Source: Cystobasidiomycetes sp. EMM_F5
Lineage: Eukaryota
DNA length: 64,000 bases
Reading direction: 5' to 3'
Assembly: GCA_051047955.1 (NCBI GenBank)
Contig: JBPGPT010000012.1
Location: 372,001-436,000, forward strand
The notes under the pieces were generated by a model. That model was not told the origin of the DNA and did no database searches. It saw nothing but the letters and a program-made list of their open reading frames with translations. Positions 19,013-56,174 of the stretch are shown here, one piece after another (the first letter of the stretch is position 1; the number at the start of each line of letters is the position of its first letter). A program made the position numbers and the translations under genes.

Positions 19013-22000
19013 TCACGAAGGGCCAGTTGAAGGCGAAGTTGCCCGCGTGTGAGGTGTATCTTGCGCCGGCGTACTAGTCAGATCCGCAGCATTGCTAATT
19101 TGGCTGTCAGTTTCTGGGTGAGATGGCTCCTCCACTTGAGGAGGATCTGCATAACGCATTTTAGGAGTCGTTGAGTACTTGCCATACTTCCCTTCTGCAG
19201 ACTTTTCCAAAGTGTCCCACGGAATGACACGGCCGAGCTGAATGAAGCCATTCTCTCTGATGAGCGGCGAGCCATACATTCGCGCTCCACCCCATCTCGA
19301 ACTGACTAGTTCGACTTCGCCATTGCCATTCCATGTAGGTATGGGAGACACGCGATCAGGACTGACCCCATCGTGAGGTGACTGCTTGACTTGGTCGGTT
19401 GTGCTACCCGGCGGTAAAGGCGGGACATGTGCAGGGTATGCTGGAGCATCAATGCCAGCATCCCACATGCGCTCGCGCCCGAGCAATGCTAAAGCGGTTT
19501 CAAAGAACCATTCGTTGCGTTTCAGATAATGTACCACGACCGTCCCGCCATGCGGCAGACCCAAGAAGCGCCGATCACGCAAGGACATGCTTTCGGGGTC
19601 GTAGCGCATGGAGGGAGCGGGAACGGCTCTTTGCTTTGCGGCGCTTGAATCTGAAGGCGCGTCGGGAAGCATAGAGTAGTCCTGCTTGAAGCCAGGCTTG
19701 CTTCCAAACGGGAATTGGTAGCCGGGACCATTCTGTTGCGCCAGCAGCCTTGGCGTGGAGGAAGTAGAGCCGTTGACAGGCGATGACTCAACGAATTTAT
19801 CTGAGTCGCTTTCATTTGACTCATCCGCTGACCGCTTTGCGTGTTGAGGCCGAATATCCACATCTCCGGGATCGCGTAGCAGAGAGTTTGGCATTCGGTT
19901 GTATTTTCCGAAAGCCATCTCAAATTTAGCGTTGCTAGTGACCAACAGCAAATCAGCAAGTATAAGAAGTCGTTATGAAGGACTTTGACTCACTCTTCAG
20001 ATCTAGCTGCTTCTGCACGCTTTGGCCTGTCTACCGAACCTTTAATGCGTTCGTCCACGGAGTCGAAAACAACAGCGCCATTACGCAACACATCGTTGGT
20101 GCCCAGCTTGTGAGTCCAATCGTCGAGAGCAGTCCAGCGTCCGCCGCCTTCGATGAGGGCTTCAACTTCCTCTTCGATAGTCATGTCGTCTTTCGGCTTG
20201 GTATAGGGTGTCTTCCACTTTGTGACGGTACTGTGAGCATCCGCATGTTCTCCACCACGACGGGTCTTCTCGGCAGCGGAGAGTCCCGCTTGACCTTCGG
20301 CACGTATACGTTCGACCTCATCTGGGAAGAGGAAACCATGCGCATACGATGTCGAAGCTTTCGGATGATCATAAATATAGCAACGCTCCGTGACCCAGTT
20401 GATGGATGTAGCGTTTGGATGCATGCGAATCCACTTTGCTACACGCTTATCTTCAGCACCAATCGTGTAGCTCTCTAAAGCCGGATTTGTCGCAATATAT
20501 TGGACCAGATCGGCCGACAGTGCGTAGCATTCGCCACCCATGAAGAGGTTACGAATTAGGTCTGCGATATGGGATGTAACCCTCAGTGAGGGCTATGCGA
20601 CAAGAGATGATGAAAGTACTCACATCCCCAGTACGTAGCATGACGAGGCGCTACGCGCAAATGGCGTTCCAGCTCGCTTAGAACCAGGAAAGCGTCATCA
20701 TCAGCTTTGACGACATAGTCCGCTTTTTTGAATCCGAGGGTGTATGTTTGCGGCGCATCTTGATCAATAGGCGTGAGTTTGCCAATCCGTTTACCGGCCG
20801 GCGTTTTGTACCATATGGGCACCGTCGCATTCTCACTTGCCCATTTGAAAAAGGTATGCGTTTTACCTTGATTCATATTTTCACGCGTATCCAACACGAC
20901 GATATCGTTATACATCTCCATTTCCAGCGCTATCCGTCGGGCATGGTGACGTCTCGGCCGGCCCAAGATGAATTTGACCTGGACGTTTTGGCCTGGAATG
21001 CCAGTATATGGATCGATGGGACGCGTGTGACGAAGGTACGAGGAGCGAATGAGATGTCGCCGCTCATAGGCAGCATCGACCGAGAAGACACCTACGAAAA
21101 TGTCGACTGGAGCAAGGGAATCTGCAAGTTCGTGTGGAAAGGGTCGTTGCTCCTGGCAGTATTGTCGCCAGGGTCGCGGAGCCTTGTCCGGCGACAGCAC
21201 GTAGTACATGGACGCAGTCAGAGAGTAGACTAAGGAAGTGAGAAGACCGAGGGCGAAGAGGATCGTGAGAGGTTGCGTTGGGACCAAAGGGTGTAGGAGA
21301 AAGCGATTCCAGGCTTTGATGGCACTTGGAAAGGGTATGAAAGTAGCCAACGAGAAACGGTGCTTCTTCGCAGAGCGTGCAGCTGCACTCATCGGCATCG
21401 GTCTGAAATTGGCAAGATCATCCACCTCAGACGGCCGCCTTCGAGGTGAGGCCCATCCAGCTCGTCTCCGCGAGTTTGACTGAGCGGCCGTATTCAGTGC
21501 TAGGGGTAGATCAGTGAGAGATGGATCGCGGGACAGTATCGATCCTCCGAGCTTTCGTGCAAGTGGTCCTGTCCGATAGTGGTGGTAGGTGAATGGGCCT
21601 TCCAGAGGCACCGCATAATCTGGCGATTCGCAATTATCGCTCGTCGCAAATGTATGTAGGGCTCGTGCGCTCTTGCTGCGGGAGAAGGAGCCAGACGAAC
21701 TGTGTCTCTCGCGGTCTTTGCCCTTGACGTGATCAAACGGAGAGCTCGGCGAAAAGGGCGAGGATGGCGATGATGCTATAGTCGATAGGCCAGCAGAGAA
21801 GGCACCGCTGCTTGCTTTCCGGTGGTGGTAGTGGTGATGATGTATGTGATACGATTGGCCGCTCGCGGATTGGGGCGATGGTGATGGGGCGCGAGAGGAC
21901 AGCTGCGACACGCTACTAGCTGCATAGCGTGGACTAGATGATGTGCTTTCTGCTTCTCTAGCATCCGCGTCGAGGGTGCTGAGTGCAGTGAGTGCAGCAC

Positions 22001-22556
22001 CCAACGCACCAACGCTTCTGACACGTCGAGGACCAGTGTTTAGAGCTCTACCGGATGGCGGAGGAGGTACACGGTTGAGATTGCTCGTAGAAGCAGCAGC
22101 GTCGGAGTGATACCCGCCGTAGACGCGCTCATAGTCTGGTCTATTGGGGTTGTCCTGACTCAATCTACTGCTACTGCCAGTACTTTCGGCGTAGGGGCTG
22201 GCCAAAGTAGAGGTGCCGGCTGAGATATTACTATGCAGGAGACGTTGCTGCAGTGCACCAGCGTTTTCACTCTGCAACTGAGATTCGGCCGTTGACGCCT
22301 GTCCCAAGTCCTCGGCCGCATGTTGGTTATGCTGGCCGAATGCGGCATGCTGGTGAAGCTGGGAGTGGACGTCTTCGGCGGTATACGGCGACAGGACCTC
22401 TGCATGAGAGCTCCTAGGGCTGCATACGCTACTAGGCGGGGGCGAGGCGCTGGATACTGTGGAAGCTGTCGAGGAATACGACGGGGGAGGATCTGCGACC
22501 ACAGTGACCGCCTGGTCGTTGAGGTAGTAGAATGGCGTGGACGGGCGGGTCGCCAT
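19013..22556 (-). CDS. Glycosyltransferase family 31 (beta-1,3-galactosyltransferase-like), type II membrane protein
   Basis: TM segment, ERRHLIRSSY, LEMEMYNDIVVLD..ENMNQGKT, YVVKADDDAF (DxD motif), MGGECYALS and AEDK. Three exons. Confidence 0.9.
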
Positions 22557-23382
22557 GGCTGCGAGCGCGGTGTGATGAGCTGCGTCCGTACGAGTGAGCC
22601 TCCCATTCAGACTGCCGTCACACCATGTCCCATGCGGAATTCGGGCCACAGTGTGCTCGCTCGATAAGGACAGATGGGCGGTTTCCAGTCAAAGCGTCCA
22701 GCACCGCGGCCAGTGGTAGTCTTTGAGCTCAGGTGTGCGTCAACTGAGGCAGGCTGGGTGTGCAGTATATTCTGAGAACGGGCTGTTCGTCGAGTAACCT
22801 CAAAACTTCAAGTTCTGCTGGCGACCCCGAGGCGCTGATCGCTTGCCAAATCCAGAGTATGCCGACAAGACCCACAGCCCTGCTTCTTGCGTTTGTTTGA
22901 ACATATCATACAGATGTATTTGCAACAAACGTGTAGATATACTAAGTATCCTCTTGCTTCATGGCAAGCTATCGGTAGCAGCGACGTGGGTCTTGAGTTT
23001 ACGTCAAGTTGGCAGCGGGATCAACATGCACCAACTCTAGAAATGAACTCGCACAGGCTAATGCTGCAAATCGTGCTGCTTTCTCGTTGTACAGTACGCT
23101 GTCATGCCGCTGTCCAGACCGCTCTCGCAGCCCTCCTTCATGCCCCATTCCAGGGAGTGGCTGCACGCGTCAAGTGCACGTCAAACATTGTTATAAAGTG
23201 TCCGCAATCTGCTTTCGCAATAAGTCTGAGCAGAAATGGCTGCAATGATCTGCTGTCTGTACACCATGCTACTTGCTGCTGCTGCAGGCTTTCCATGAGG
23301 AAATTCAACATCCTCCTCGTAGCATGAATCCCCGGCGAACAAGAAGAAGAAAGAAACGCTGCAATACTTCGCTGAAAGGGCA

Positions 23383-24833: not shown

Positions 24834-25184
24834 GGTAGCAGCACCCGTCTTTCAGGAACCGGTATCGGTGGCGATTCTGCCGTGCACCGCGCACACGCAT
24901 GTATCATAACGTTAGGATTCGTCTCAGCAAATGTGTACATATGTAATTGATAAACAATGCCAGCGAGGCTGTACCGCTTACTTCCCACCTTTTACATGCG
25001 ACTTCAGGGATACGACGAATTTGGAAAGGCGTCGCGCCTCAGACCACACCGTGACCTCGAAAGGGCAGCTCCGACAGCGGACCAGAGAAAATATTAACAG
25101 AGTCAGGCAATGGTGCATGTAGCTGACCTTGCTCCACTGCCCTTCACACCGCAACCCTGCTGACCGTTCTGATCTGCCGTAAAA

Positions 25185-26703
25185 ATGACCCGTACATTCT
25201 CCACAACACTGACAATGATGGTCGCGGCGACGAGTCTCTTGGGAATAGTTGATGCTGCTCCAACAAGAGAAGCCTCTCTCCTCCCGAAAAGAGGCATCTG
25301 GGAGGAAGCCCGTCATGTGTTCCCCTTGCAAAAATCCAAGCGAGGCATTCGACGTCGCGCACTGGCTTCGTCTACTCAGCCTTGGCTAGACGCAGACGCT
25401 GCTGCCAATGGCACCTATACACCCGGTCCAGCTAACAATGGCAGTCGGATGGGTTTAGCTATCCACGGCGTTGACGAATGTAGGTCGCGTACATGGGCTT
25501 TCGTCATGCATTATTAGCTGAAGTCTACTCAAATCATGTTTGTCTAGTGTACAGCGTTACAATGATGGTCGGCACACCACCACTTCCCTTCAAGATGCAA
25601 ATCGATACTGGCAGTCCGTGGGTTTGGGTGCCGTATACTGGATGTGCGTCTTGCGCCGGTGGTGCGCAGACTACTGGTCCCAACGTATCTTCTACCATGA
25701 CGATGCCGAAGGACGCCAGCGGCAGCCCTTATACCCAGGTTTTCGGCTACGGAGGTGGCCAGGTAGCTGGTAAGCACTTTTTGATGGAGCATTGCGCTTG
25801 GATGGTGACAGTCTCGTTCAGCTGAGTTGACCGAAGACTACGTGTCCCTCGGCAACATGTCACTTGGTAAGACCGGAGTGGCTCTGGCTGGACAGACTCA
25901 GGGCTACAGCGTGTGCGTCAGGTATTCAAACGGAGCAGGCTCACATTCAGCTTACAAATCTCCGCAGCGAGAGCTATGACGGAATTTTAGGCATGAGCAA
26001 GCCTTCTCAGGACAATTTCACTGAAGCTCAAGGATCCAATTACTTGGCGACTCTACAGAAGAACGGAATCATAGCGACACGACAGTTTGGACTCGCCTTA
26101 GGTCGTGTTGCCGATCTCAATACTACCGGCAATCATGGCACCTTTACTTTAGGGGGCGTCGATGCCTCCCAAATTGAGGGATCTCTTGTCGAATTCCCAG
26201 ATGCTCAACCTAACAACGCGCTCTATGGCGGGAATGTCACCAAGCTCACAGTCGACGGCAAGAGTGTAGTACTCAATACGACATTTCCAGGGGCGCTCTT
26301 CGATAGCGGATGCAGTAAGCAGACAATGGCGCAACCCAAACGATGCCTGGCTGATACAAGTCTCCCCCTCGTAGCACAAATCATCATGCCCGATGCTGTC
26401 GCGGCGGGCATTCATAGCCTCATTCCAGGCGCGATGATGGTTGGAGACGGCCAGACGTACGCCATACCTTGCAATACCACATCGAGTATCGCTGTGTCGA
26501 TTGGCGGAGCGTCATGGCCAATTGCCGTCAAAGATCTGATGACGGAACGTGCTGATGGTTTCACTCAAGACAACTACTGTCAGTCTAATATTGAGTATGG
26601 CCATGGTGTGACCGACATGATACTGGGCGACGTCTTCCTCAAAAATGTTTACCTTGCGGTGGACATGGATTCAAAGATGATTGGGCTTGGCAAGCGCAAG
26701 TAG
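25185..26703 (+). CDS. Secreted pepsin-like (A1) aspartic protease
   Basis: Signal peptide, IDTGS, YGGG flap, DGILGM, FDSGC|T and ILGDVFLKNVY. Confidence 0.92.
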
Positions 26704-26901
26704 CGATGGACATGCATGAAAACATCTGCAACTCTTGTAACAATAGCTGTCGTATATTCACCGTTCTGCTTATGCGGTGTTAGTGTCTCATATGGCCGGT
26801 CGCGGAGATGTTAATTCGTATTTCGTGTTACATGGATTCATATAGTGACAATAGTGTTCATTCGGAAGGCAGGCTACGATGATTTCCTCTCTGGCACCTT
26901 A

Positions 26902-27141
26902 TCACACACGGCGTGGACGAGTTGAGGCCCTCCCCTGCGGAGAAACAACAGCTTGCGGACGAAGGGCCGCCAGATTTGGTCCGGTAGGACGATCAGCAGC
27001 TACGTTAATATTACTGTCAGCCGCACTTGTATGCGCTCTCGCCGAGAATTCATCCTGCTCACCTGTCGTGGGCATTCCAGCTAGGTTTCGATTATAGCCG
27101 CCACGGCCCTGGAGAGGCTTGTGAAGATTGAAAACCGGCAT
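26902..27141 (-). CDS. Micro-gene A: 58-aa Arg-rich peptide with GRGGYN motif
   Basis: Exons 27141-27063 and 26999-26902, intron 27062-27000 (GTGAGC..GCTGAC..TAG, phase 1). Product MPVFNLHKPLQGRGGYNRNLAGMPTTAADRPTGPNLAALRPQAVVSPQGRASTRPRRV. TATAAAA and a CT-rich leader lie upstream. Confidence 0.7.
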   Translation of the reverse strand: MPVFNLHKPLQGRGGYNRNLAGMPTTGEQDEFSARAHTSAADSNINVAADRPTGPNLAALRPQAVVSPQGRASTRPRRV

Positions 27142-27252
27142 TGCTGATAGACTTTCGTGATTTAGTCGAAGATGGAGGATTTGGAATGAAGAAAGATGTA
27201 CTGAGGAGCAGGATGAGCAGAAAGCAGGACAGGACCGGTGGAGGAACCCGCA

Positions 27253-27259
27253 TTTTATA
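27253..27259 (-). promoter_or_regulatory. TATA box (TATAAAA) upstream of micro-gene A
   Basis: Consensus TATA about 110 nt upstream of ATG 27141, followed by a pyrimidine-rich leader. Confidence 0.5.
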
Positions 27260-27687
27260 GTCGACCTTGCCATAGGTTGGAAGTGTCCTTTGTTGAGTAC
27301 GCTGTGCTGCCCTGTTTTTGCGTAGCTTTGTCATTCACATCGGGAACGCTGTGCCTTCGGTTTTGTCTTGGTGTGACGGCGGTGTTGTTGGGTGGTAGGG
27401 TCAGTTGACAAATTTACACGTTGAACCGCGCAGGAAGGACGCGTTCGAGCTGTCTAGCAGCAAATTGCGGATCATTCATGTTGCAGACTGGGTTTAGCAG
27501 GAAAACTTCGGTGAGCGCTACGAACAGGAACAGCGGCTGCCGTGAATGACTTCATTGATTAATTAGGACTGTATGCGTGGAGGACGACAGGTTGAACAAA
27601 TCTAGGGTTGAAGGAAAACTATTTGGCTCTTTTCTGGATGTGGATTAAGGTCAACAAGACAATAACGACTTGTCCAGAGGATGTTGA

Positions 27688-27938
27688 CTAGCGATAGAGT
27701 GGCGGTTGTTGATAGGTTGGCATCATCCCCATGCCGTTTCGGCCAGCATGAATGTTGTGCATACCCAAGCCTGAGGAGCATGCGATATTTAGATTTGGGC
27801 TTTCATGCCAGGCGCCTTTGATGTCATCTTACCCGGTTGTACCATCATGATGACCGGCTGGCTGCCCGTGTTACGACTGCGCACGCCTGCGCGGGGTCTA
27901 CCAGGACGGTAATTACGAGGAACGTTGCGTACGGGCAT
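27688..27938 (-). CDS. Micro-gene B: 62-aa Arg-rich peptide, divergent member of the array
   Basis: Exons 27938-27833 and 27770-27688, intron 27832-27771 (GTAAGA..CTAAA..CAG, phase 1). Product MPVRNVPRNYRPGRPRAGVRSRNTGSQPVIMMVQPGLGMHNIHAGRNGMGMMPTYQQPPLYR. Confidence 0.6.
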
Positions 27939-28514
27939 GGCTTGAGCTGAGTGTATATGGCCGGAAAGTCTGCTTTGAAGTATGCCGGTCTCTTGATGAA
28001 TGAGACACTGTTGAGAGCAGAGGAGAGATGGCTCCGGGCGGACTGAGCCGTATTTACACCCATCTGGGTGCCAACAAATATAGCGGAGAGGCGTTGCTCA
28101 AGGCTGGGTCCAGAGTCAGCTGATATGCGCACCTGATCTGCGTCTGTCGATGCTGTGCTCGGTGTGTCCGGCATGTCACCGGTCTGCCACAGAGACAGGC
28201 CACTCCATAATTGCCAAGTCTGCAATGCGTGTGCTCGAGCAATTCATTCAGAGCAAAAGCAGTAGTGAGGAAGCGGTAGAGTCACGTCTTCGTTGTCTGG
28301 AACGCCATACAAATACAATCCCAGTACAAAACCAGACCGTTGCAAATTGTCAGTGTTGTCAAACGCAGCTATCTGGTATACATTCAGAAAGAGTCAAGAG
28401 GAGCAGATCCAGACAAGTTCAGGACAGCAAATCAGATATACGTAAACGGATGATGCAGGGGGATATACGATGCGTGATTGCGAAGTGGATATGTCAAGCT
28501 TCAGCCACCGAGGA

Positions 28515-28763
28515 TCACCGCTGACGTGCCCGTATCGTCTCTCGCATTCCTGATTGAAAGACCTGGCTCGGCACCGGCACTCCAATCGTTGGCGCTGGGT
28601 ATTGGAGACACGGAAATTAGACGGGCACGATATTGCATGTTAACATCCACGTACTTGGTCTGCCGGATCGTGTTGCGGGCAGGATAGTATTGTAACCACC
28701 GCGTCCTATCCGTTGTCTGCGCGCAGGCGTATTGCCAGGTTGAGTCGTATACGTGAAGACCAT
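28515..28763 (-). CDS. Micro-gene C: 62-aa Arg-rich peptide with IGRGGYNT motif
   Basis: Exons 28763-28655 and 28594-28515, intron 28654-28595 (GTACGT..CTAAT..CAG, phase 1, contains an in-frame stop). Product MVFTYTTQPGNTPARRQRIGRGGYNTILPATRSGRPTPTIGVPVPSQVFQSGMRETIRARQR. Confidence 0.72.
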
Positions 28764-29098
28764 ATCTTACTGGAGACAAGATCGGATAAATGATATGTTG
28801 AGTGACGGATGATGCTGTATGGAGATGTTGCAAGCGCGCTGACTAAAGCTGCAGTCGAACGTAAAAGGCTGCTGCAAGGCTGGTGACCGCCTCTTAGTCT
28901 GTCGTGCAGCGCCCGACTGTGCCCAGTGCGGCAAAAGGTAAACCGGCATCAGCGTGAAGACCAGAGGTATAGCATGGTTGGGACAATGTTTCAAATTTAG
29001 AGTAAGGAGGTGTTATTCAAGAGTTTAACGGTGGAGATATTCAGGTGATCATACATTGATTCTGCGATACCAGAATGGAGCGGCTCGCACTATCTTAC

Positions 29099-29336
29099 TC
29101 ATCGCAATGGCCGAAATGACCCCGGACTGGCACCCTGTAGAGTTTGCTGGTACGCGGCTATCATTGCGCTCGATCCTGTCAATGACGTACGCAAGATCAG
29201 TCGAAATGAGCTTATAACGGACGAAATATGTACACGTACCTCTCGCAGGCGTATTGTAACCACGTCGTCCAATCTGACGGGTGCGAATAGATGGATTCGG
29301 ACGGGAGGGAAGTGCAACGACCACTGTTTTAGGCAT
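29099..29336 (-). CDS. Micro-gene D: 57-aa Arg-rich peptide with IGRRGYNT motif
   Basis: Exons 29336-29240 and 29175-29099, intron 29239-29176 (GTACGT..CTGAT..CAG, phase 1). Product MPKTVVVALPSRPNPSIRTRQIGRRGYNTPARGSSAMIAAYQQTLQGASPGSFRPLR. Confidence 0.72.
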
Positions 29337-29828
29337 TGTGTGAGTACAGCGTGATTATAGAGTCAGCTGTCGATAGGACTACAAGAAGCGCTGATGTGGA
29401 GAGCGAGAGATGAAAGCCAAAGAAGAGCGAATCCCGCGTTGGAGCAATGAACGGCACCGACTACTGCACACGCTGCTGTGTCGCCGAGACAATATCTGCC
29501 GGCGTTCGCCCGGCGGTCTCAGGCTTCTCGCACGCTGCAGGACAAGTCAGTTCAATAAGTCGTGCAATGTGGTGAAGCTTAAAGAAGCGAGCATCGGAAC
29601 CCGCTGCGGAGAGTCACGACTAACGACAGAACGGCCATGTCGTCGTCTTACAAAAGCTGCACGCTCAACGGCGTGTGCTATGTCAGCGGGCACGGGAAGT
29701 TGTCAGACGGAACCAAGTAGAGCAGTGAAGCAACAGCGATACGGTGGAAGCTGAAAAGCAGTGAGCACTGAGCACACTGCAGCATTGCTTGTAGAGTAGC
29801 CCATGTTCTATACGCTACACCCCAATCC

Positions 29829-32700
29829 ATGCTTTGGTCGCAGTGCTCGAGCCCAGTGTTTGCGAAGGCTGATGCGCAACGACGGGCAGTCACGGTGACG
29901 GCAGGATCTCCGAGGTTATCGTACGGGAGCAGCGGATTCCAGAGCAGCAGCACTCCACCCAACACTGCCAATCCGAGTACTGCTGGTGCAGTCTCCGCTG
30001 TCACACAAAGTGAGCCTCGCCGTTTGTCTTGTCAAAGTGTTTCCCGCTTAATCTTGTCCGTAAATCCAGGCCCACTTGGCAGAGTCGAGAGCAGTCGCAG
30101 TCCCGCAGGCGGAGACGGCAGCAGCAGCCTTATTGCCAGCCATACTGCTGACAGCCCTTCGACCAGCAGGAGCATCACTCAGCCGTCCATCACCCAGTCG
30201 TCGACATCGTCGTCGCTTCCTATCACTTTACGCGAGGCTGATCAGGGCAGAATTATTGACGGCGATAGCGAGACTATCAGCTGGAGCAGCAGTAGTAATC
30301 CAGCAAGCAGTACCGGAGCATCACTCCATCCAGCATCCTCGACTCTGTCGGGCGCTGCCTCCAGCTCGCCAGTCTACTCCAGCTCTGGGAGCAATTCCAG
30401 CTCGGGGTCTGATAATTATTCCCGGTCATCCACGACGGCTTCCATTTCGAGCTCGAGCTCGGGTCTGACGTCCCCCACGCTCTCTCCTTCTTTATACACA
30501 GGCCGCAACAGAACAATCAGCACTGCATCCTCGTTCACCTTCTCATTCAACTCGTCCAGCAGTGGGAGCAGTACTCTGACATCGCCTCTGCCGACAGAGA
30601 CTGAATTGGAGACGGATGATTCGCCAACGAGCACAGCTTCGACGAGCAGTCTGAGTGCGAGCCACACGGAGACTGTCTCGCACAACACCACTAGCAGTCG
30701 ATCCACTCTCACTTCATCATCGGCGACAACGGCAAGGCGGACGACATCTTCTCGGGCAACTACAGCGACAACCATGAGCGGGAACGGGAGCACGTCTAGC
30801 TCTGTGACAGGGACCGGTACCAGTGCTTCTCTTTCACCATCCGAGACTAGACTACCAAGAACAGACAACGACGGTTCTACGGTCACTTCGCCCACCTCGG
30901 TCACAAACTCATCCATTTCTCCGACGAGTTTGGTCTCTAGTACATCGAGCACCATTCCATCATCGAGCTCATCCAGCTCCACAATCGCGTCAAATAACAC
31001 CACCATCTCATCTACGTCCACATCTTTGTCCTCGTTGGTGAACGGTACCAGGTCGCGCTCGACAAGTCTCTCAACTTCGACATCTTTAACAATCAATGGT
31101 ACAAGCTCAACGACGTCCAATAGCACAGTCACGCGGAGTCGTTCTACCTCACTTACTACCTCAAGCCAAAACTCCACTCTGTTGCGCAGCTCTAGCGGAA
31201 CTTCGACAAGCAGTAATGCGACTGTCATTGTCGCTCTACCCGCTTCGCCGGTGTCATTGACAGACACGAGTATCACTCCATTACCCACGTCCCGTATAGC
31301 GAGTAATATAGCACAGACTACCGCTCCCGTGCATAAAGCCGACGTTACCCCATCGACTGTCGATGATCCGGATCCGTCCAGCACAAGACAGCCGTCACTC
31401 AATGATGGTGGATCAGCAATGACACAGTCTGGCAAATTGATCGGTGGTGTCATTGCAGGCGTTGCAGTGCTAATTATCATTGTAGTAGCCATGTTTTGGC
31501 TGATGGGCAAGGTATGTCTGTCCCGTCCTTGTCCAAGTGCCAAGTCCTTGCTAAGCGATTTGTTTCAAACAGCGGCGGCGCAACAAGTTTGTACGGCCGA
31601 TTATCGAACGAATGCATCCGACTGGCAGCCAGTACTCGATTCCAGGCATGCTGACGGCGAATACTCGGCGATCCCGGGCATTTAGCATCGATTCTACGTC
31701 TACCTACAGCACGCATGCAGGTCCTCATAGTCCAGGTACTCGCGGTCATTCTCCTCCGCTCCACAATGGCGCAATCCCCGGCTACGGTATACCCTCCTCT
31801 CCACCCCAGATGTCTACAATCTACAGACAAACGTCAGACCAGTCAGACATGTCCTTCCTGCCTTCTGCCATGGTCGGAACGACTTCTTCGCACTCGAGAA
31901 AACCGACATACAGGTCCTTTGAAAGTGCGGCTAGTATGGCTCTGTCCAACCAGCTCGTATCACCTCCCGCTACTACTCCAAGTCGAGCATTAGATCACGA
32001 TGAAGAGGATCCGTTTGCGTCGTCGGGCTCGTCAGGACACGGTCATCATTCTGGAGCTGCCTCCTTTTCCGGTCAAGGTCATTCCAGACAGCCTTCGGAT
32101 GCTACCCATGCCACGACAGTCTATACCACGCGTAATCACTTGCTGTCAGACTCGACTGGCTCAAAACAAGAGACGGAGGTGCCTGGCGTCTTTGTCGTGC
32201 CTTCCTCGAGTCAGGGTCATAATGACTCTACAGCTGCCCATCGCAACAGTGTCGCAGCGTCTTTCGATAATGATGACGTTCCGTACCTTCCTAAATCACC
32301 GGCTCTGCGGCCAACGAGACTCGAGCGCCGCACTACGGATCCCTTCACAAACAAAAACAGACTGCGAGTCATCAACCCGGACGAGGATAGTCTGAATAGG
32401 ATTTCGACACCCACCTCGGCAACTATGCTTCGACCTGGCTCGGCCGCTTCGCAGGCTAGCATGGCAAGCCGATACTCGGATTTTTACTATGATAATCACA
32501 TGCCTCCGATGTCTACGCTAGCTGTAGCCAATCCGTCCTCGTCGACGAATTTCGGAGACGAGATGGAGGAACTCGGTACATCCCGCAAGTCGAGGCATCT
32601 AAGTATCAATCTTCCTAACCAGAAATCGCCATTTGATGATTCAGCCTCTGTTTACACACCCAACGAAGTCAACACCGTCGGCTTCTTCAGCGGGCATTGA
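29829..32700 (+). CDS. Ser/Thr-rich single-pass membrane mucin (Mid2/Wsc-type surface sensor-like)
   Basis: About 500 aa Ser/Thr-rich ectodomain with many N-x-S/T sequons, TM LIGGVIAGVAVLIIIVVAMFWLM, then K|RRR after an intron. Cytoplasmic tail has DPF/SPF motifs. Start uncertain. Confidence 0.7.
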
Positions 32701-39107: not shown

Positions 39108-42100
39108 TTATCGTGGGTAGGAAGGAACACGGGAATTTGTTCGAGAAATGCGAAGATTTGAGTATGTAGTTGGACTGTGCGATTTAGGCATGAGCGTGAC
39201 AAGCAGATTGCCGAATGCCGCAACTATCATCTGACCACCAGCGAGAGGCTTGAAATGGCGAATTCGGTCTATCGGCAGCTGTGGATGAACAGGTTTTGGA
39301 TCGCTGGGTATAGCCTTGCCGGAATCAGGCAAAGGTGTTTGAGGAAGCGAGGACTGATTAACGACGACTTGAAGATTGGCGCACTGTACCGAGAGATTAC
39401 CGTCTTTGACAAGAAATGCGCGATTCAGGCTGTAAGTCCACAGCTCCCACCGCCCAAGCATGGTCGACTTGGGCGCGCTGAGTTGCCGTCGGACTCCAAC
39501 TACCTGAGAATCGCAAATGTCCCAAGCGCCCTTGTCATCAAGAGTCAGCGTGCCTATCGTGACTGCACGCCACCTCGGGGATGCAGAGGATCCAAAGGTG
39601 CCCGATGTATCGCAAGAGTCATCTGCCAAGTCCTCCTGGGTTGAAGACAAACGCGTCATAGATTGACCAGCAGCAGCTTCGTTTCGATGCGAGGCTAAGT
39701 CGTCAGTCTTGCGTTTCTCGCTTGCGTGACTGAGTCTACGCAGGGAATGCGGAGAAAGGGGATATGACGCTGGCGACAAGGTCCCTCGTTTCTCATTTGT
39801 TGTGAGTTGAGGGGATGCCCCACGATAATAAGCCCCTCCATTGATATTTTCAGAAAATGTGGACAATGGGCTTGCATTGTGGCATACACAGGTGTCCAAG
39901 GAGGATATTGTCGTAATGCGGATCGCATACAGCGCGGATGACGTTGAGGCAAGTAACAGCACTCCTTCACCAAGGCTCAGCCCGCAGCCTTCACAGGCAT
40001 GCTCATGAAGACCGATCAAGCGCACGCGACGGATGGAAGTGGTTGCCAGATTTGACGTGTAGATCAGGCGATCTCCCGAAGCGTCCCAGACTTCTACCGT
40101 GCCTGAGGCTCGACCCACTGCCAATAACGTTTGCTGGCCGAGCACCCATACGGCTTGTACGATGTTGTCTTTGCTGTGTTCTGACAATGCTGAGGGCGAC
40201 ACGAGCTGCCAGTCTAATGATGAATGTAGCCGCAACAACTGAGTGGACCCTGTAGTCAAATTTTGTTGAAGTATGTGAGTAGGTTGCTTTGACTTTCCTT
40301 CGATAAGGGTAGATCGACTAGGGGCAGGCGGGGGCGGAAGGACCTCCGTACAATCTTGGGATTCACAGCTCCATCGATGCACTGCTCCACTCTGCTGTAT
40401 GGTAAAAAGGACATTGACAGACGGGGTGGAGCTGCCATTCGGCACAGGTCTTGGCGGCGAAATATCGTCGAATGAATGGCCAAGCACGGTAAAAATACTC
40501 GAGTACTTCGTAACGTTAATGGGAACATTGGTAAAGTGGATCAGTGTTGGCGATTCTTCGATGCGCCAGCAAAGCAAACGATTGGCGGACGTGACGGTTG
40601 CACAAAATTCCGCGCTGTCCGTCAAGGCTAAAGATAGGAGAACTTCGCCGCGTGCAAGGATTTTACGCAGCGGTATCCTCAGACGAGACATTCGCTCCGA
40701 TCTCAAGCCCGTGCCCGGAACAAAGACGATTTGATGCTCGATCGGAACCCATAAAGCGTAGGCAGAATTGTCACTCGTGGAAGTAAGGAGTTCTATGTCA
40801 GCGCTCCTACGAGGCTCTGGTAGCGTACACATGAATGTCGCACCAGGCTCCATATGGGCATCCGGAATGGCGAGTGTTGCGGCCGAAGATGATTCATCGG
40901 CAGTGAGGCGCTCCGAACCTTTCAATAGCTGCCGTAGAAGCGTATAGAGGGCAAAGGTAGTCACTGAGATAGGCAAGGCAACGAACTTGATGAAGGCATA
41001 AGCGGTTTCAAGGATTGCCTGTAATGCGGTTTGTGTTTTCCCAGCTCCGGCCGTGAAATGCAATACAATTGGCGACGCAATGTGCACATGGACCGCCTCG
41101 GACGTCCTCGCGCCGAGTAGGTGCCAAAAGACCTCGCTAGCAGGCCAGGGAGTGCCGGGGACGTGCGCTAGACGAGGTCCGTCCGGGAAAGTAATATTTG
41201 AACAGAATGCGGGCACGAAGTAATCCGGTCCATAAAGCAAGTATAGAAGGTAATTTGAGAGTATCAAGATGATTCCTGTGTATGTCCGAGCCTTTCTCTG
41301 CCGTAGGGAAGAAAAGATGCTCTCGAACAAACGAGGAAAGGTACTAGGTTTCTTGGGTGTATTGGATCCGGGTCGGACAACAGGTTGACGTAGATCCTGA
41401 TGAATCAGATCTGCAAGTTCTAGGCGTTGCATATCGATACTCAGAACAGTCACAAAATATGTCATTTCCATGATGTAGTCCATCACGAGAGCGACGGCGC
41501 CAAACACGACCATTTCGCGGATAACGCGCGTCGGAATGCCCGCATAGAGGAGGTACAGTCCAACGAGCTCGGCAACGAGATTTACGAAGATGCTCGTTCC
41601 GCTTTGACCCAGACCTTGGGCGATACGCTCTTTGACGGGTAGATTGATGGATGTCTCCGTTACGGCGGATATCAGCACAAACATATTATCCACGCCGAGC
41701 ACGACAATCAGAAACGGAATGAGTTTCCAGGGCACTACCATAACGGATGCGTTTAAGCAAGGTCCAAATTATGAACATAGCTGGACTGACCTAGGTCAAT
41801 TTTGTAGCCGGCCAGTGCACAGAGACTCAGCGAACCCATCCCCGAGATCAACATCTGTACGAGACCTGTGAGAACCAAACCTGTCCGAGAGTGCACCTTA
41901 TCGATGCCGCGTAGCGTCATGTAGATGTACAGGCCGACAATAACGTAACCGATGTAGAAGAAAACGTCTTCCCACGCCTTTGATCGCACACGAACGTCTG
42001 AGACATGCTTCATGACAAAGCGAGGCCTGGAGGCTGTGGGTTTGCCGACCGGAATCAAGCCTAAATCGCGTCCGATAGAGTTGACCAAGCGGACAACAGA

Positions 42101-43048
42101 AGAATGGTCTGGATATTCTTCGAGGAAAAGGGTGACTACAGCATAGTCGGACTTTCGCATCGTAGAACCGGACTGTACGCGCCCAGCGAAAAGACTGTCG
42201 TGTCGGAGAGGAAAGTCGTGATAGTGCTTTTCGGCAGAATTGACTGTTGCTATGAGCGACGTGTCGGACAGCATGGCATTCTCGTTGCCGTTCCAGTAGG
42301 CCATTGGTGAGACGGTGAAGCACTTGCCGCTCGGGAGAAAGTCCAACTTTGCGCAAGCCATAGGCGTATAGGCATTATGCTGAGGAATACCGTAGCTATA
42401 CCGGTCAGTGCCGCTTGAAAGAGCGTCATGCAGGCGATGCTCCAGCTTGTGAAGCGTATGTAACACTCTCCTGTCCAGAACGCCGTGCTCGCTCGCTACT
42501 GCGCCGTCTGTCGGGAAACCAAGGAGGACCTGCTGGACCGTAACTTCACGAAACTTGGGTATGCGTTGCCAACATGCTTCTTCGCTGTTTGTGACGATGG
42601 CATCCAAATCGTGCCAGGGAAAGCGGAGGTCCCTCGCAGTCGAAGGAACGGGTCTCCCGTCATAAGCAGCCAACAGGTTCCATGCCGGAGACGTACGCAG
42701 GAAGTTGAAGAAGTCGCTGCCAGTCGAAGGGGCTCCCCACGCATACAGGGACAGGACCGGATACGTCAATCCGCACAGAAACACAGAACACAGACAGAGG
42801 ACTGTGACCTGGCGAGTTGCGACGAAGCGTCCCCAGTTCTGCAGCCGACTTTGAGTGTAGATTCGGACTGCCAAGTATATTCGCAACCAGGTCTGCTCGA
42901 GCCACGACGCAGACGGCTTGCCCGTTTCTATTGGAGCATACTGCTGTGACCGCTGCTGAGCCTGCTGCTGCCTGTGCAGCGTCACTCCGAGGTTGCCATT
43001 TCCTGTGGATGCTGACGCAGAGCCCGGCGGGGTAGGCCGCAAGTTCAT
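39108..43048 (-). CDS. SCP1: SREBP cleavage-activating protein (SCAP)-like: sterol-sensing domain + WD40-like C-terminus
   Basis: VHSRTGL, VPWKLIPFLIVVLGVDNMF, PVKERIAQGLGQSG and FVTVLSIDMQRLELADL (SCAP YIYF-like/MELADL-like region). Beta-propeller-like C-terminus. Confidence 0.85.
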
Positions 43049-43409
43049 GCGATGTTCCAGGATCCCAGGAAGCGGCAGGGCGCGGGTTTCATTGCGGCTG
43101 CCTGTGTGAGCGAATCTGAAGTCGCACCATGCAAACAGAATGGAAGCCAGGACTTTGGCATAAAATAAAGTCAAGAGGCAGATCCCTACCGGACGTAAAC
43201 TCGGCGATAAGCTTTATGGCAGACTTGATAGCGGAGTCGCATTTTTATGGCTGGCTTTGCAAGATATCCAGGCTACAATATGTACTGCGTTCTAATGTGG
43301 AGACTACCATCATCACAAGTCCTGCATGTTTTTGTTATTATTTTCATTATTTTCGGTCATCGGTTATGCCGCGTTACCGCTTGTACGAGCACCAATACAC
43401 GTACATGCC

Positions 43410-51961: not shown

Positions 51962-54900
51962 TCAATTCGTAGTATCGTCTGGCCCTTCATAATCTTCCGT
52001 TGCAAAAGCGTGCTGGGATAGCTCGGCAGCCGTCGGACGCTCGTTATGATCCCTGTGTCGGGGAAAGGTCCAATCAGAGGTGACCATCGACACCGCTGTA
52101 CGACTCACATTTTGAAAGTTAAGTCCAAGAATGCTTGCCCGTCTGCAGAAAAGTCGGACGGGATTGCAGGTCTGGCGTCTTTGGCTGACCCAATCTGCGC
52201 GGCAACGTTAGTAAGACTCGAGTACCAGTCATCGCAACATACCTTGAAAATAGCCTGCATTTGGGTTAATTCCATCCAGGGGTGATTGCCGGTAAACATT
52301 TCGACGATAAGACACCCTAGCGACCAAATGTCTGCCTTGGCAGTGTGACTTGTCTGTTTGACCACTTCAGGTGCCATCCAGAACACTGAGCCCTGCAGAG
52401 ACGGGCGATGCAAGCGAGATTGAGATGGTGCTAACAGGCTCTCCTCAACCTTCTTTGATATGCCAAAATCCGAAATCTTGATTACTCCACGATTATCTAC
52501 CAAGATGTTGCCGCCTTTGATGTCTCTATGGATGATATCGTTCTCGTGTAGATAAGCTAGACCTTGCAGGATCTGGCGCACAAATGTGCGTATCAAAGCT
52601 TCTCCAAACGCACCAAGCGTCGAAAGCAGGTGCGCAACAGAACCGCCTGGCACGTACTCCAGGAAAATATGGAGATGCTTGCCGTCGGAGTGCGAGTCTG
52701 CAAATGATAGAAAGGCTCAACACTGTGCTCGGTGTCTTGCAGACTCATCGTACTTACCCAAGTACTGCACAATGTTAGGATGCGACATAACCTTCAACAA
52801 CTCAATCTCGCGCTCCAAAGCACCGAGCATACTTTTCTTGCGTTCCTCGTTGTGAGAATGCCCTGTCGGCAGCTCGACTTGCTTGACCGCCATGAAGCTG
52901 CCGTTGAGCGCATGCATGCCGAGATACACCTCCCCAAAAGAACCCGCCCCGATCAAGGCACCTTTGACCCATCGCAGATTCGGCTTTTCTGATTGACGGT
53001 ATGTTTGATCAGTGTCAATTAAGCCGGAATTTTGCAGCAGACTCACTCGGCTTGACGGTGACTGTGACAGGAACGTCCAAGTCTTGTCCGTCTTCCTCCT
53101 GTTCCTCTTCAATATCCTCGTCGCTGGCATCATCCTCAGTAGTCACGTTTTCTTCATCCTCTTCATCGATAACGTCTTCTTCGTCAGAATCGGGACTGCG
53201 CACGCTTCCTGACGAAGTATCTGCGAGGTTGCTTGTGGCGGCTATGGTATCGCTGATTGTGGAATCTTGGCTGCCGTCTCCGATTGTCGCCAAGTCGCTT
53301 GCCTGGTCCGCGAAGATACTGATTCGACTAGCGCGACGCTTCTCTAGGTCTTCCGTGATTTCCTCTACTGTGAGAATGCTTGCAGTATCAGAGTCACGAT
53401 TACTTTTTGCATGACTCCAGACACTGAGCCGGCTGGATGGTCTTGTTCGAGAAGTACGTCGAGTAGCTTGGCTTGCAAGACTGCGTACATCGACAGGTGG
53501 CTCTTCCTCTTCATCGCTATTGACGCTGATGCTTGGTGCTGTCGAATTTGTTGAAAGATGTGATTTGAACGGAGGACGCAGAGGCGAGGCAGCATTGTCA
53601 TCCATGTATCTGAGAGCAAGATCCTTGCTGGGTAACGGCGGTATCGTATCGATACTGCCACGATGATCTGACCCAGCCGAGCTGACAGAGAATCTTGACA
53701 CACCTAAACCGGCTAGACTTTGCGAATCTCTACTTGCATCCCAGCTGGTCTTGCCGATAGATGCGGCTCCGTATCCACTCTCCCTTCGCATCATGGACTT
53801 GCGCATCTGATTCTTGACAGTGCGAGACATGTGCTTCTTCTCCGTGGCTGCATTAGGGAAATACTCTACCAGATGGCTTGTGATGAGCTCTGAAGGCGGT
53901 CTTTGACCAAAAAAACTTCGCAATTTTTGGTGATTGAGGAAGCCTGCAGTCTGCGAGCGGCTTTGTGGCTGCGAAGACGCGGCTGTCCCCGCAGCGCCTC
54001 CCCAGCCAAGACTTGACATGAAGCTCGTTGTGCTTGCACGATGCATTGTATTCCTTTGCGGCTGGAGTCTACCAGCATTTTTGCCGGACAGCTCTTCAGT
54101 TGATGGCGTCGACGGCGTGGGAGAGGCTGGCTCGTTTGACCTTGCACTTGGAACAATTGACACGTCGAGCATACCATTTGGTGAAGTGGGCGACACACTT
54201 GCGTTGATATCTTCGCCGAAGAAGTTTCGCAGCTTGCGCGCCTTGTGCACTCGAACCTCTTCTGGCGATGAAGGTATTGTATGCGGTCGCCGTAAGTACA
54301 GACCTCGAGCTCTTTCAGGCCGATCAGCGGAGTGGCAGATTGCCATGAGATCTGATTCCGTAATGTTGTGCACTACAAAGAGACGATTGAGCATGATCAT
54401 AATGCACAGATCACCCTGCATAACTCACTCGAAGCCCCTGAAGTCCCAGCGTCAGCGTATATCTGCCAGCCTTCCATCTCGGCATAAGGGTCTCCATCGG
54501 CATCTCGACTGCGATTCTTGTCCACAACGGGAAGATCCTTGATGCCGAGTTTGCCAAATTTGCGCAGGGCTCTGAGCATGACTTCGTATGCATCCCTCGC
54601 TCCGTCTACATTGACCATCTTGCTGACCCCGTCATCGCCTACGAATTTTACAGTCTTACGCATCACATCTTCAAGTGGTATGGCTTGCCCGGCACCTCCG
54701 ACCCCTACAGCCGTCACGGAAACCGTGCCAGCAGAGGTAGACGGACGTGCGAAACTTCCCTTGCCCACACTATATCCTTGATTTTGCAATTGCTGCTTGG
54801 TCAAGGGTTGTATAGACGATGGATGATTCGACAGCTGGCCGGAATATCCGTATTCGGAGCTTATCGGACTGCTGTTACCAGAGTGGCTCTCGGATATCGG

Positions 54901-56174
54901 CGACAAGCCATTGACATGCGAAGGTTTCAGCGCACGAAGGTCGCTCCGCACAGGCGCGGTGCCAGGTCTGCCCGATCCTCGCGTGACGTTAGAGGACGTA
55001 GAGTTATTCGACAGGCCGCCAGCATCATCACTGCCGCCATATCCAAAGGCATGAGTCTGATATACTGCTCCAGATGTGGATGGCCTTTGCATCCCTATAT
55101 TTTTTCGCAAGTCATTAGCTAGACCCCCTTGTCCAGTCAGACGGGCAAGTGTGGTGGGAGATGCGGCAGTGGTAGATATCGTGGGTGCAGTGCTGGAAGT
55201 CTGCTGATACCGTATAGATGGTTGCAAAGCGCTGGCAGTGTGAACGCCAACTGGTCGCGATCCGCCTGGTGCGGGCGGCAGGGGATGGTTCAAGCTGACT
55301 GGAGAGCGAGACGCAGGCGAAGTGATCATTCCAAAGGCGTGACTCTCGCCAGTGGTAAGCAGAGAAGCCGATGTATTGTTATTGCTTGATGAGCGAGAAC
55401 CGTAATGAGCTACGCTCGGGGCCTCGCCTGCGGGATTCGCGTGAGTGAGCGGCTGATACGCCTGCGGCAAGCGCGATTCGGACTTTGAAGATGAGTTCAA
55501 GTGCAGAGGCGGCGGTATGCGATGTGCGGATTTGCCAGCGCTGCCCCGCCTGGCAATTTGAGCTTGGGCAACAACGGCATCTCCGCCTGGACTGCCTACA
55601 GAGCCTGTAGGCGATGGTGGGACGCCTGCATTCTCCGTTCTTCGTATGCTATTGCTGCGGAGGGATGTGATTGACGGGCTGTGTTGTAATGGTCGTCTCG
55701 CATTCAACAATTGCGTCTCCCTGGCTGCTAGGCAAGCTTGGCGGAGCTTCTTCACCGCGACGCATATCTTTATGCGTTCTCCTACCTGTGATCAATTGAC
55801 AATAGATTAGTTCATTGTCGATTGTGCAATATCAGCGCGTCACACACGCTATTCACGCCCATCTCTTTGAGCGCCTGCTGGTCGATGTCGAGCAATACAT
55901 CTCCGCGAATGTCATTTACGGAGAAGGTATGGGCATGCGTCCCGCATTTGTTATCCGCCAGCCATCGCGACACCTCAGCGTCAGTCCACGACTTGATATA
56001 ATCCAGGTACGTGCGCCCAGCGAGGTCAGGTTCGGACAGAATAGCCAGTCCAGCGATATTACCCGAGCTGTTGATGGTCACGGAAGGGTTGGAGGAGCTG
56101 GATGTGATGCTGCGGGGCGATGAATTGGACCTCCCGGCATTCATGGCGTACGAGCTGGCGACTGCCGCTGCCAT
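51962..56174 (-). CDS. STE11: MAP kinase kinase kinase Ste11 (SAM + Ras-association-like + kinase)
   Basis: SAM domain (WTDAEVSRWL...NDIRGDVLL), FFGQRPPSELI, WVKGALIGAGSFG, MAVKQVELP, HRDIKGGNILVDN, KISDFGISKK and SLQGSVFWMAPEVVKQ. Confidence 0.95.

Follow-up and report, generated by a model that had tools for sequence, protein, structure and literature searches.

What, if anything, is encoded in a 3.1-kb gap between two plus-strand genes of Cystobasidiomycetes sp. EMM_F5, and what would its products do? The gap lies at 26.7-29.8 kb of a 64,000-nucleotide stretch of contig JBPGPT010000012.1 (assembly GCA_051047955.1, positions 372,001 to 436,000 of the forward strand), hereafter the window, in which all positions are numbered. 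It holds four separate minus-strand micro-genes, A to D, whose open reading frames (ORFs) start at positions 27141, 27938, 28763 and 29336, respectively (Table 1). Judging from the features of the DNA itself, these are probably real, translated genes. As an explanation of the whole array, we tentatively favour a coding, orphan family of paralogous micro-proteins that would be intracellular, disordered and marked by a motif of the RG type.

Gene structure and predicted products

The original prediction had located the four starts, proposed introns of 60-64 nt and given their phases and the product lengths, and recomputed splicing reproduced all of these values. The introns are in phase 1 in all four genes and follow codon 26 in A, 35 in B, 36 in C and 32 in D. 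Their signals read GTGAGC..CTGAC..TAG in A (63 nt), GTAAGA..CTAAA..CAG in B (62 nt), GTACGT..CTAAT..CAG in C (60 nt) and GTACGT..CTGAT/TTGAC..CAG in D (64 nt). We scanned the 3.4 kb from 26500 to 29900 with a strict intron pattern, consisting of GT[AG][AC]G, CT[AG]A[CT] placed 6-35 nt before [CT]AG, and a total length of 50-75 nt. Three elements were found on the minus strand, namely the introns of A, C and D, and none on the plus strand; in Markov-shuffled sequence the chance level is about 17.8 elements per 64-kb strand, which corresponds to about 0.9 per strand for this interval. Intron B fails the pattern solely at its branch site (CTAAA). When a related pattern was applied window-wide, intron-like elements exceeded chance only at 50-69 nt (36 vs 10.9 expected), and the four array introns fall in the modal intron-length class of the window. 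The introns are also poorer in GC than the exons in every one of the four genes (0.42-0.49 vs 0.56-0.59), and the reading frames of exon 2 run for 24-32 codons in all four, an outcome to which an analytic estimate assigns a chance of about 2e-4. As hosts of small nucleolar RNAs the introns were ruled out because they are too short, and Rfam returned no match between 24000 and 32000 at E-values up to 1.

Intron A keeps the frame and contains no stop, and its retention, which gives the unspliced 79-aa ORF, would add 21 mostly acidic residues. This acidic stretch is unlike the rest of the A protein, which fits its removal by splicing. In the public protein collection the 79-aa unspliced form of A and a 49-aa unspliced form of B are each present as a singleton, both from automatic calls.

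Upstream of the start codons, leaders free of ATG in any frame extend for 112 nt in A, 125 nt in B, 186 nt in C and 258 nt in D. The window-wide empirical probability of such a stretch is 0.134 for at least 110 nt and 0.026 for at least 200 nt, and the ATG-free leaders of the four genes are jointly improbable. A purine occupies position -3 of the start codon in each gene, and the leaders contain 56-61% pyrimidine on the sense strand, compared with a background of 50 +/- 5.5%.

The four spliced products are small polycations with a net charge of +8 to +9 and a pI of about 12. The residues that favour disorder (Pro, Gly, Ser, Thr, Asn, Gln and Arg) make up 60-69% of each, and the grand average of hydropathy (GRAVY) is -0.5 to -0.8. 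Recomputation gave 8, 9, 10 and 8 Arg and 1, 0, 1 and 0 acidic residues in A to D, and neither Cys nor Trp in any product, in agreement with the 8-10 Arg, at most one acidic residue and absence of Cys and Trp described before. The motif octamers of A, C and D, the strings that take their place in B and the four C-terminal tetrapeptides had likewise been read correctly. Hydrophobic runs reach 3-5 residues at most. Given this composition, the lack of Cys and the lack of any long hydrophobic run, the products would have no signal peptide, as had been claimed, and no membrane anchor, disulphide or prenylation site. They should thus be soluble, intrinsically disordered, intracellular polycations.

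The shared motif and the evidence for coding

With one mismatch allowed, the back-translated motif G-R-[G/R]-G-Y-N occurred at three sites when both strands of the 64 kb were searched, against 0.11 expected, and none of 100 shuffles reached three. A looser peptide expression, run over the six frames of the window, recovered the same three sites and no others. All of them lie inside the array and on one strand, no more than 2.2 kb apart and 33-83 nt downstream of an ATG. Five of the six motif codons differ between A and C, each at the third position only, so that five changes are synonymous and none is non-synonymous; between C and D there are two changes, one synonymous and one Gly/Arg. This synonymous-only change within the motif is the strongest argument for coding. 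Elsewhere, aligned codons retain merely 33-48% nucleotide identity, which is near saturation, and the only DNA repeat, direct or inverted, that links the units is a 35-nt stretch shared by C and D around the motif (77% identity). The low nucleotide identity and the lack of any shared DNA repeat outside this stretch suggest that the duplications are old and that it is the peptide, not the DNA, which has been conserved.

Protein similarity was compared with 1000 composition-preserving shuffles and gave a z of 6.2 for A-C and of 3.4 for C-D. A, C and D are secure as paralogues, and B is a probable member, mainly because of its position, orientation, size and intron phase. The proposal of an old duplicated family under selection on the motif is thus upheld for A, C and D, and is weaker for B. 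Purifying selection is indicated on one short motif close to the N-terminus, with a weaker apparent constraint on size, on intron phase and on the Arg-rich C-terminal end. Codon-usage log-odds ranked the annotated frame best of six in all four genes, at 0.08-0.14 bit per codon vs -0.006 +/- 0.089 for 183 other small ORFs.

Table 1. Positions of the micro-genes, their motif codons, overlapping reading frames and adjoining features in the window.
Feature	Position	Strand	Description
Micro-gene A	26902..27141	-	exon 1 27141-27063; intron 27062-27000; exon 2 and stop 26999-26902; product 58 aa
Micro-gene B	27688..27938	-	exon 1 27938-27833; intron 27832-27771; exon 2 and stop 27770-27688; product 62 aa
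Micro-gene C	28515..28763	-	exon 1 28763-28655; intron 28654-28595; exon 2 and stop 28594-28515; product 62 aa
Micro-gene D	29099..29336	-	exon 1 29336-29240; intron 29239-29176; exon 2 and stop 29175-29099; product 57 aa
Motif codons of A	27091..27108	-	
Motif codons of B		-	none
Motif codons of C	28689..28706	-	
Motif codons of D	29253..29270	-	Arg at third motif position
Leader and putative core promoter of A	27142..27260	-	pyrimidine-rich; TATAAA at -118; no ATG for 112 nt
Rival 80-aa ORF	27092..27334	-	other frame, overlaps A start codon; 0.104 bit/codon; no Pfam match
Rival 109-aa ORF, outside the family	27845..28174	-	other frame, overlaps B start codon; 0.119 bit/codon; no Pfam match
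Secreted pepsin-type aspartic protease	25173..26703	+	signal-like N-terminus, DTGS site; convergent with A, 3' ends about 200 nt apart
Ser/Thr-rich membrane-type ORF, 618 aa	29829..31685	+	divergent from D; one C-terminal hydrophobic segment; no Pfam family

Possible mode of action and the weight of the counter-evidence

If the array encodes a family of disordered RG-motif micro-proteins, these might act through the conserved motif together with their positive charge. They could bind RNA or partners in ribonucleoproteins (RNPs), or the motif could be an RG-type site for docking or for arginine methylation, and each paralogue would owe a specificity of its own to its diverged flanks. We regard an RG-type mode of action of this kind as possible though doubtful. 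Among the reports read, the one natural protein that carries the hexamer GRGGYN of A and C is yeast Hrp1. There, the heptamer GRGGYNR, as found in A, forms part of the nuclear import signal, within the RGG part of the signal recognised by Kap104 (PMC8140498), and RGG regions such as that of Hrp1 are described as methylated on arginine by arginine methyltransferases (PMC2408616). The segment of Hrp1 that combines RGG with a proline-tyrosine nuclear localisation signal (PY-NLS) resembles the micro-proteins in its basic, Gly-rich and disordered context. Unlike RG/RGG RNA-binding proteins, the micro-proteins have no RNA-recognition domain.

As cargoes of Kap104/karyopherin beta2 of the PY-NLS class, the products were rejected on the C-terminal element. 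This class is defined by a C-terminal R/H/K-X2-5-P-Y element (PMC2408616), and P-Y occurs in none of the four products, B having only P-T-Y and P-L-Y. Such a signal further has a basic or hydrophobic N-terminal epitope inside a disordered stretch of positive charge. The surroundings are basic and disordered in all four products, but the RGGYN block was dispensable in Hrp1.

Several results weigh against reading the array as a coding family with an RG motif. Gene B is without the motif, its similarity to D is marginal (z 2.2, P 0.046), and the pairs A-B, A-D and B-C show no significant similarity. The codon score is not discriminating, as out-of-frame ORFs over the starts of B and A reach 0.119 and 0.104 bit per codon. 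No element common to the four upstream regions was found at k 8-11. The word-indexed search of 5.8 billion clusters, made with an alignment of the unspliced ORFs, kept two of seven candidates, both of them the window's own ORFs of 79 and 49 aa. An exhaustive exon-1 profile search of 1.84 billion representatives gave four matches, two to own ORFs and two to proteins with GRKGYN repeats, which are considered below. A metagenome scan with the C/D pattern yielded 27 pattern matches and a single confirmed one (L001); this was rejected, since it lies off-frame inside a bacterial ORF that resembles tryptophan synthase alpha, a name given by eye. A classical RGG/RG box contains two or three RGG or RG units in close succession. 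The products have at most a single RGG, one in A and one in C, with R-R-G and a distant R-G in D and none at the aligned site of B; in this classical form, the RGG-type role first suggested for the array is not borne out. Finally, in Hrp1 a block of alanines over RGGYN left Kap104 binding unchanged (PMC2408616). RGGYN being dispensable there, the heptamer shared with A transfers no function.

Could the array then be non-functional, that is, consist of decaying relics of an old duplication or of exons of a non-coding transcript whose frames are open by chance? The absence of homologues from the cluster, profile and metagenome searches, the loss of the motif in B and the overlapping ORFs that match the codon score all speak for this reading. 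A single open frame is unremarkable as well, the probability of at least 57 open codons being 0.14 per frame, and the frameshift in a nearby gene (see below) indicates a flaw in either the assembly or the locus. On the other side, the motif differences between A and C are synonymous only, and start codon, intron signals, phase, size and composition have been kept in all four genes despite near-saturated nucleotide divergence; the joint improbability of the ATG-free leaders and the acidic character of the intron-A stretch, which fits splicing, point the same way. We therefore consider non-function unlikely. The missing orthologues can be set against the fate of a neighbouring galactosyltransferase-like ORF, whose named relatives, from Microbotryum, are 42-59% identical, and whose other relatives reach 59-66% over about half of the query. 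This fits a probable place of the organism in the Pucciniomycotina, and the protein collection contains nothing closely related to it. As the best relatives of this neighbour are only 42-66% identical, the absence of orthologues of fast-evolving, intron-split genes for products of about 60 aa carries little weight either way.

Alternative readings, distant relatives and neighbourhood

It is improbable that the four genes encode precursors of exported or processed peptides, either a signal-less pro-peptide like Qsp1 or a ribosomally synthesised and post-translationally modified peptide (RiPP) with the motif as its recognition or core element. The idea has some appeal in that these are small genes in an array that diverge fast yet retain one short conserved element, in that a secreted pepsin-type aspartic protease gene lies about 200 nt from the 3' end of A, and in that Qsp1 provides a basidiomycete precedent of a small peptide signal. 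The Qsp1 precursor is said to be without a classical signal peptide. Cryptococcus Qsp1 is described as a secreted pro-peptide that a protease converts extracellularly into its mature form, followed by transporter-dependent re-import (PMC7537855). It would be comparable to the micro-proteins as a very small basidiomycete gene product that acts as a peptide and not as a lipopeptide pheromone (PMC7537855); it differs from them in having no sequence likeness. Gene adjacency to a protease is, alone, weak evidence. The products lack a hydrophobic N-terminus, Cys and CAAX, as well as any repeated core between dibasic sites. Moreover, Pfam detected no prolyl oligopeptidase, P450, DUF3328-type protein, tyrosinase or peptide N-methyltransferase in 46 window ORFs, a set that covers ORFs below 90 aa and spliced genes in part. 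RiPP-like precursors, which had been among the earlier suggestions, are thus disfavoured, as neither RiPP nor pheromone-type features (Cys or CAAX, repeats, tailoring enzymes) were encountered.

The precursors of CAAX pheromones, MSDIN peptides and dikaritins are like the micro-genes in being small, sometimes arrayed or intron-bearing, and in having a conserved part beside variable parts. Each class was tried and rejected. Dikaritin- or ustiloxin-type precursors have a signal peptide and repeated cores between dibasic sites, with DUF3328-type or tyrosinase genes nearby; the longest hydrophobic run here is 3-5 residues, the motif is single, there are no Kex2-flanked repeats, and none of these Pfam families was found in the 46 ORFs scanned. 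MSDIN (amatoxin/phallotoxin) precursors combine a conserved MSDIN leader with a Pro-flanked core and a dedicated prolyl oligopeptidase; the N-termini of the products are unlike this leader, and the scanned ORFs contain no prolyl oligopeptidase domain. Basidiomycete lipopeptide pheromone precursors end in a C-terminal CAAX prenylation box, which is excluded by the lack of Cys in all four products.

There is a slim chance that the gene models are partly wrong, in that transcripts start further upstream and translate the 109-aa or 80-aa ORF, or that A is in fact the 79-aa form retaining its intron. These ORFs are equal in codon score, the 63-nt intron of A is in frame and stop-free, and the automatic caller recorded the 79-aa product and the 49-aa unspliced ORF of B. 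Against this, the alternative ORFs lack paralogues, the motif and any match in Pfam, the consensus introns would stay unused in untranslated regions, and the family resemblance is found in the frames of A to D only.

The original prediction had been unable to assign the products to a known family, and in this it was borne out, since Pfam, cluster, profile, ESM Atlas and PDB searches gave no assignable relative. Pfam found no family in the exon-1 peptides or the unspliced ORFs, and the ESM Atlas had no usable match for exon 1 of C or for P0008, one of the lichen-fungus proteins described below. When the four products were run against the window by tblastn, the best matches other than self and paralogues (E 0.005-0.03) fell in the C-terminal part of a SCAP-like ORF; they are free of the motif and were rejected. 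The sole PDB profile match, chain 1tl2_A (tachylectin-2; E 1.3, 12.4 bits), was set aside, the turn motif being alike by chance only. A beta-propeller blade of the tachylectin-2 type, which spans about 47 residues, many of them hydrophobic or aromatic, and has a turn of the I-G-x-G-G-W type, is incompatible with the composition of the micro-proteins, as reflected in their negative GRAVY. Each of the five blades of tachylectin-2 has an R-A-x-x-I-G-x-G-G-W(-N) turn that resembles the motif context of C and D; the resemblance is not significant.

The two non-self matches of the profile search, of 271 and 432 aa, aligned repeatedly (7 and 8 times) with the part of the profile that holds the motif, with E-values of 1e-6 and 5e-4. 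They belong to a family of 10 proteins (P0008-P0017), of which the named members, all hypothetical proteins, come from Diploschistes diacapsis and Thelotrema lepadinum (Lecanoromycetes). Proteins of this family of lichen-forming fungi are 257-432 aa long and carry 3-9 copies of GRKGYN between Ser/Pro-rich linkers; they match no Pfam family, and the hexamer GRKGYN was absent from the literature searched. What they have in common with the micro-proteins is G-R-x-G-Y-N, after which T/A and then S/P often come, and a disordered, Ser/Pro-rich context. The differences are several. The micro-proteins have one copy or none in 57-62 aa, whereas the lichen-fungus proteins are long and multi-copy. Position 3 of the motif is Lys in 69 of 69 lichen-fungus repeats, in contrast to G in A, G in C and R in D. 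The lichen-fungus motif is preceded by G-[G/A]-L-x, with Leu at -2 in 53 of the 69 repeats; A, C and D have L-Q, R-I and Q-I upstream, and the lichen-type sequence is absent. The two groups also come from different phyla. Membership of the micro-proteins in the GRKGYN-repeat family was ruled out by copy number, length, the Lys at position 3 and the upstream G-[G/A]-L-x, and because the likeness goes no further than G-R-x-G-Y-N with a T/A after it, and the E-values reach significance only through the sum of 7-8 weak matches to repeats, we treat the resemblance as a lead and not as homology. As a distant conjecture, G-R-x-G-Y-N might be an undescribed fungal short linear motif with a conserved reader (which might be an import receptor, a component of RNPs or an arginine methyltransferase), borne in 3-9 copies on disordered scaffolds of lichen-forming ascomycetes and in a single copy on micro-proteins that would act as competitive regulators or decoys diversified by tandem duplication.

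The window is fungal in content: Pfam, applied to 40 of its long ORFs, recognised Rxt3, SCAP, a Byr2/Ste11-like kinase, polysaccharide lyase 14, a pepsin-type protease and others. The galactosyltransferase-like gene at 19993-22688 on the minus strand passes from frame -3 to frame -2 across 17 nt (20586-20604), where its homologues P0018 and P0019 read on and show a gap of 4-15 residues. Since 17 nt is too short for an intron, this gene would contain a frameshift from an assembly indel or be a pseudogene. A Byr2/Ste11-type MAP kinase kinase kinase with Ras-binding and kinase domains is split over three ORFs at 52108-55791 on the minus strand, and a SCAP-like sterol-sensing protein is encoded at 39111-43213, also on the minus strand; no link of either gene to the array was seen.

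Its sequences make the array an orphan family; the products themselves are of a familiar kind, one more group of small, basic and disordered proteins. Fungal annotation systematically misses spliced genes for proteins of fewer than 70 residues, and the automatic ORF calls at this locus are unspliced fragments only. The array offers a clean test case, with four paralogues, intact introns, a motif that has been retained while its codons changed synonymously only, and no assignment to a family. If the genes are not expressed, they would serve as a calibration example of how far evidence from sequence by itself can mislead. Should the likeness to the lichen-fungus repeat proteins be functional, it would point to an unrecognised fungal system of motif and reader. 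If the genes are expressed, the Pucciniomycotina would gain an orphan micro-protein family, together with a defined six-residue motif with which to hunt for partners.

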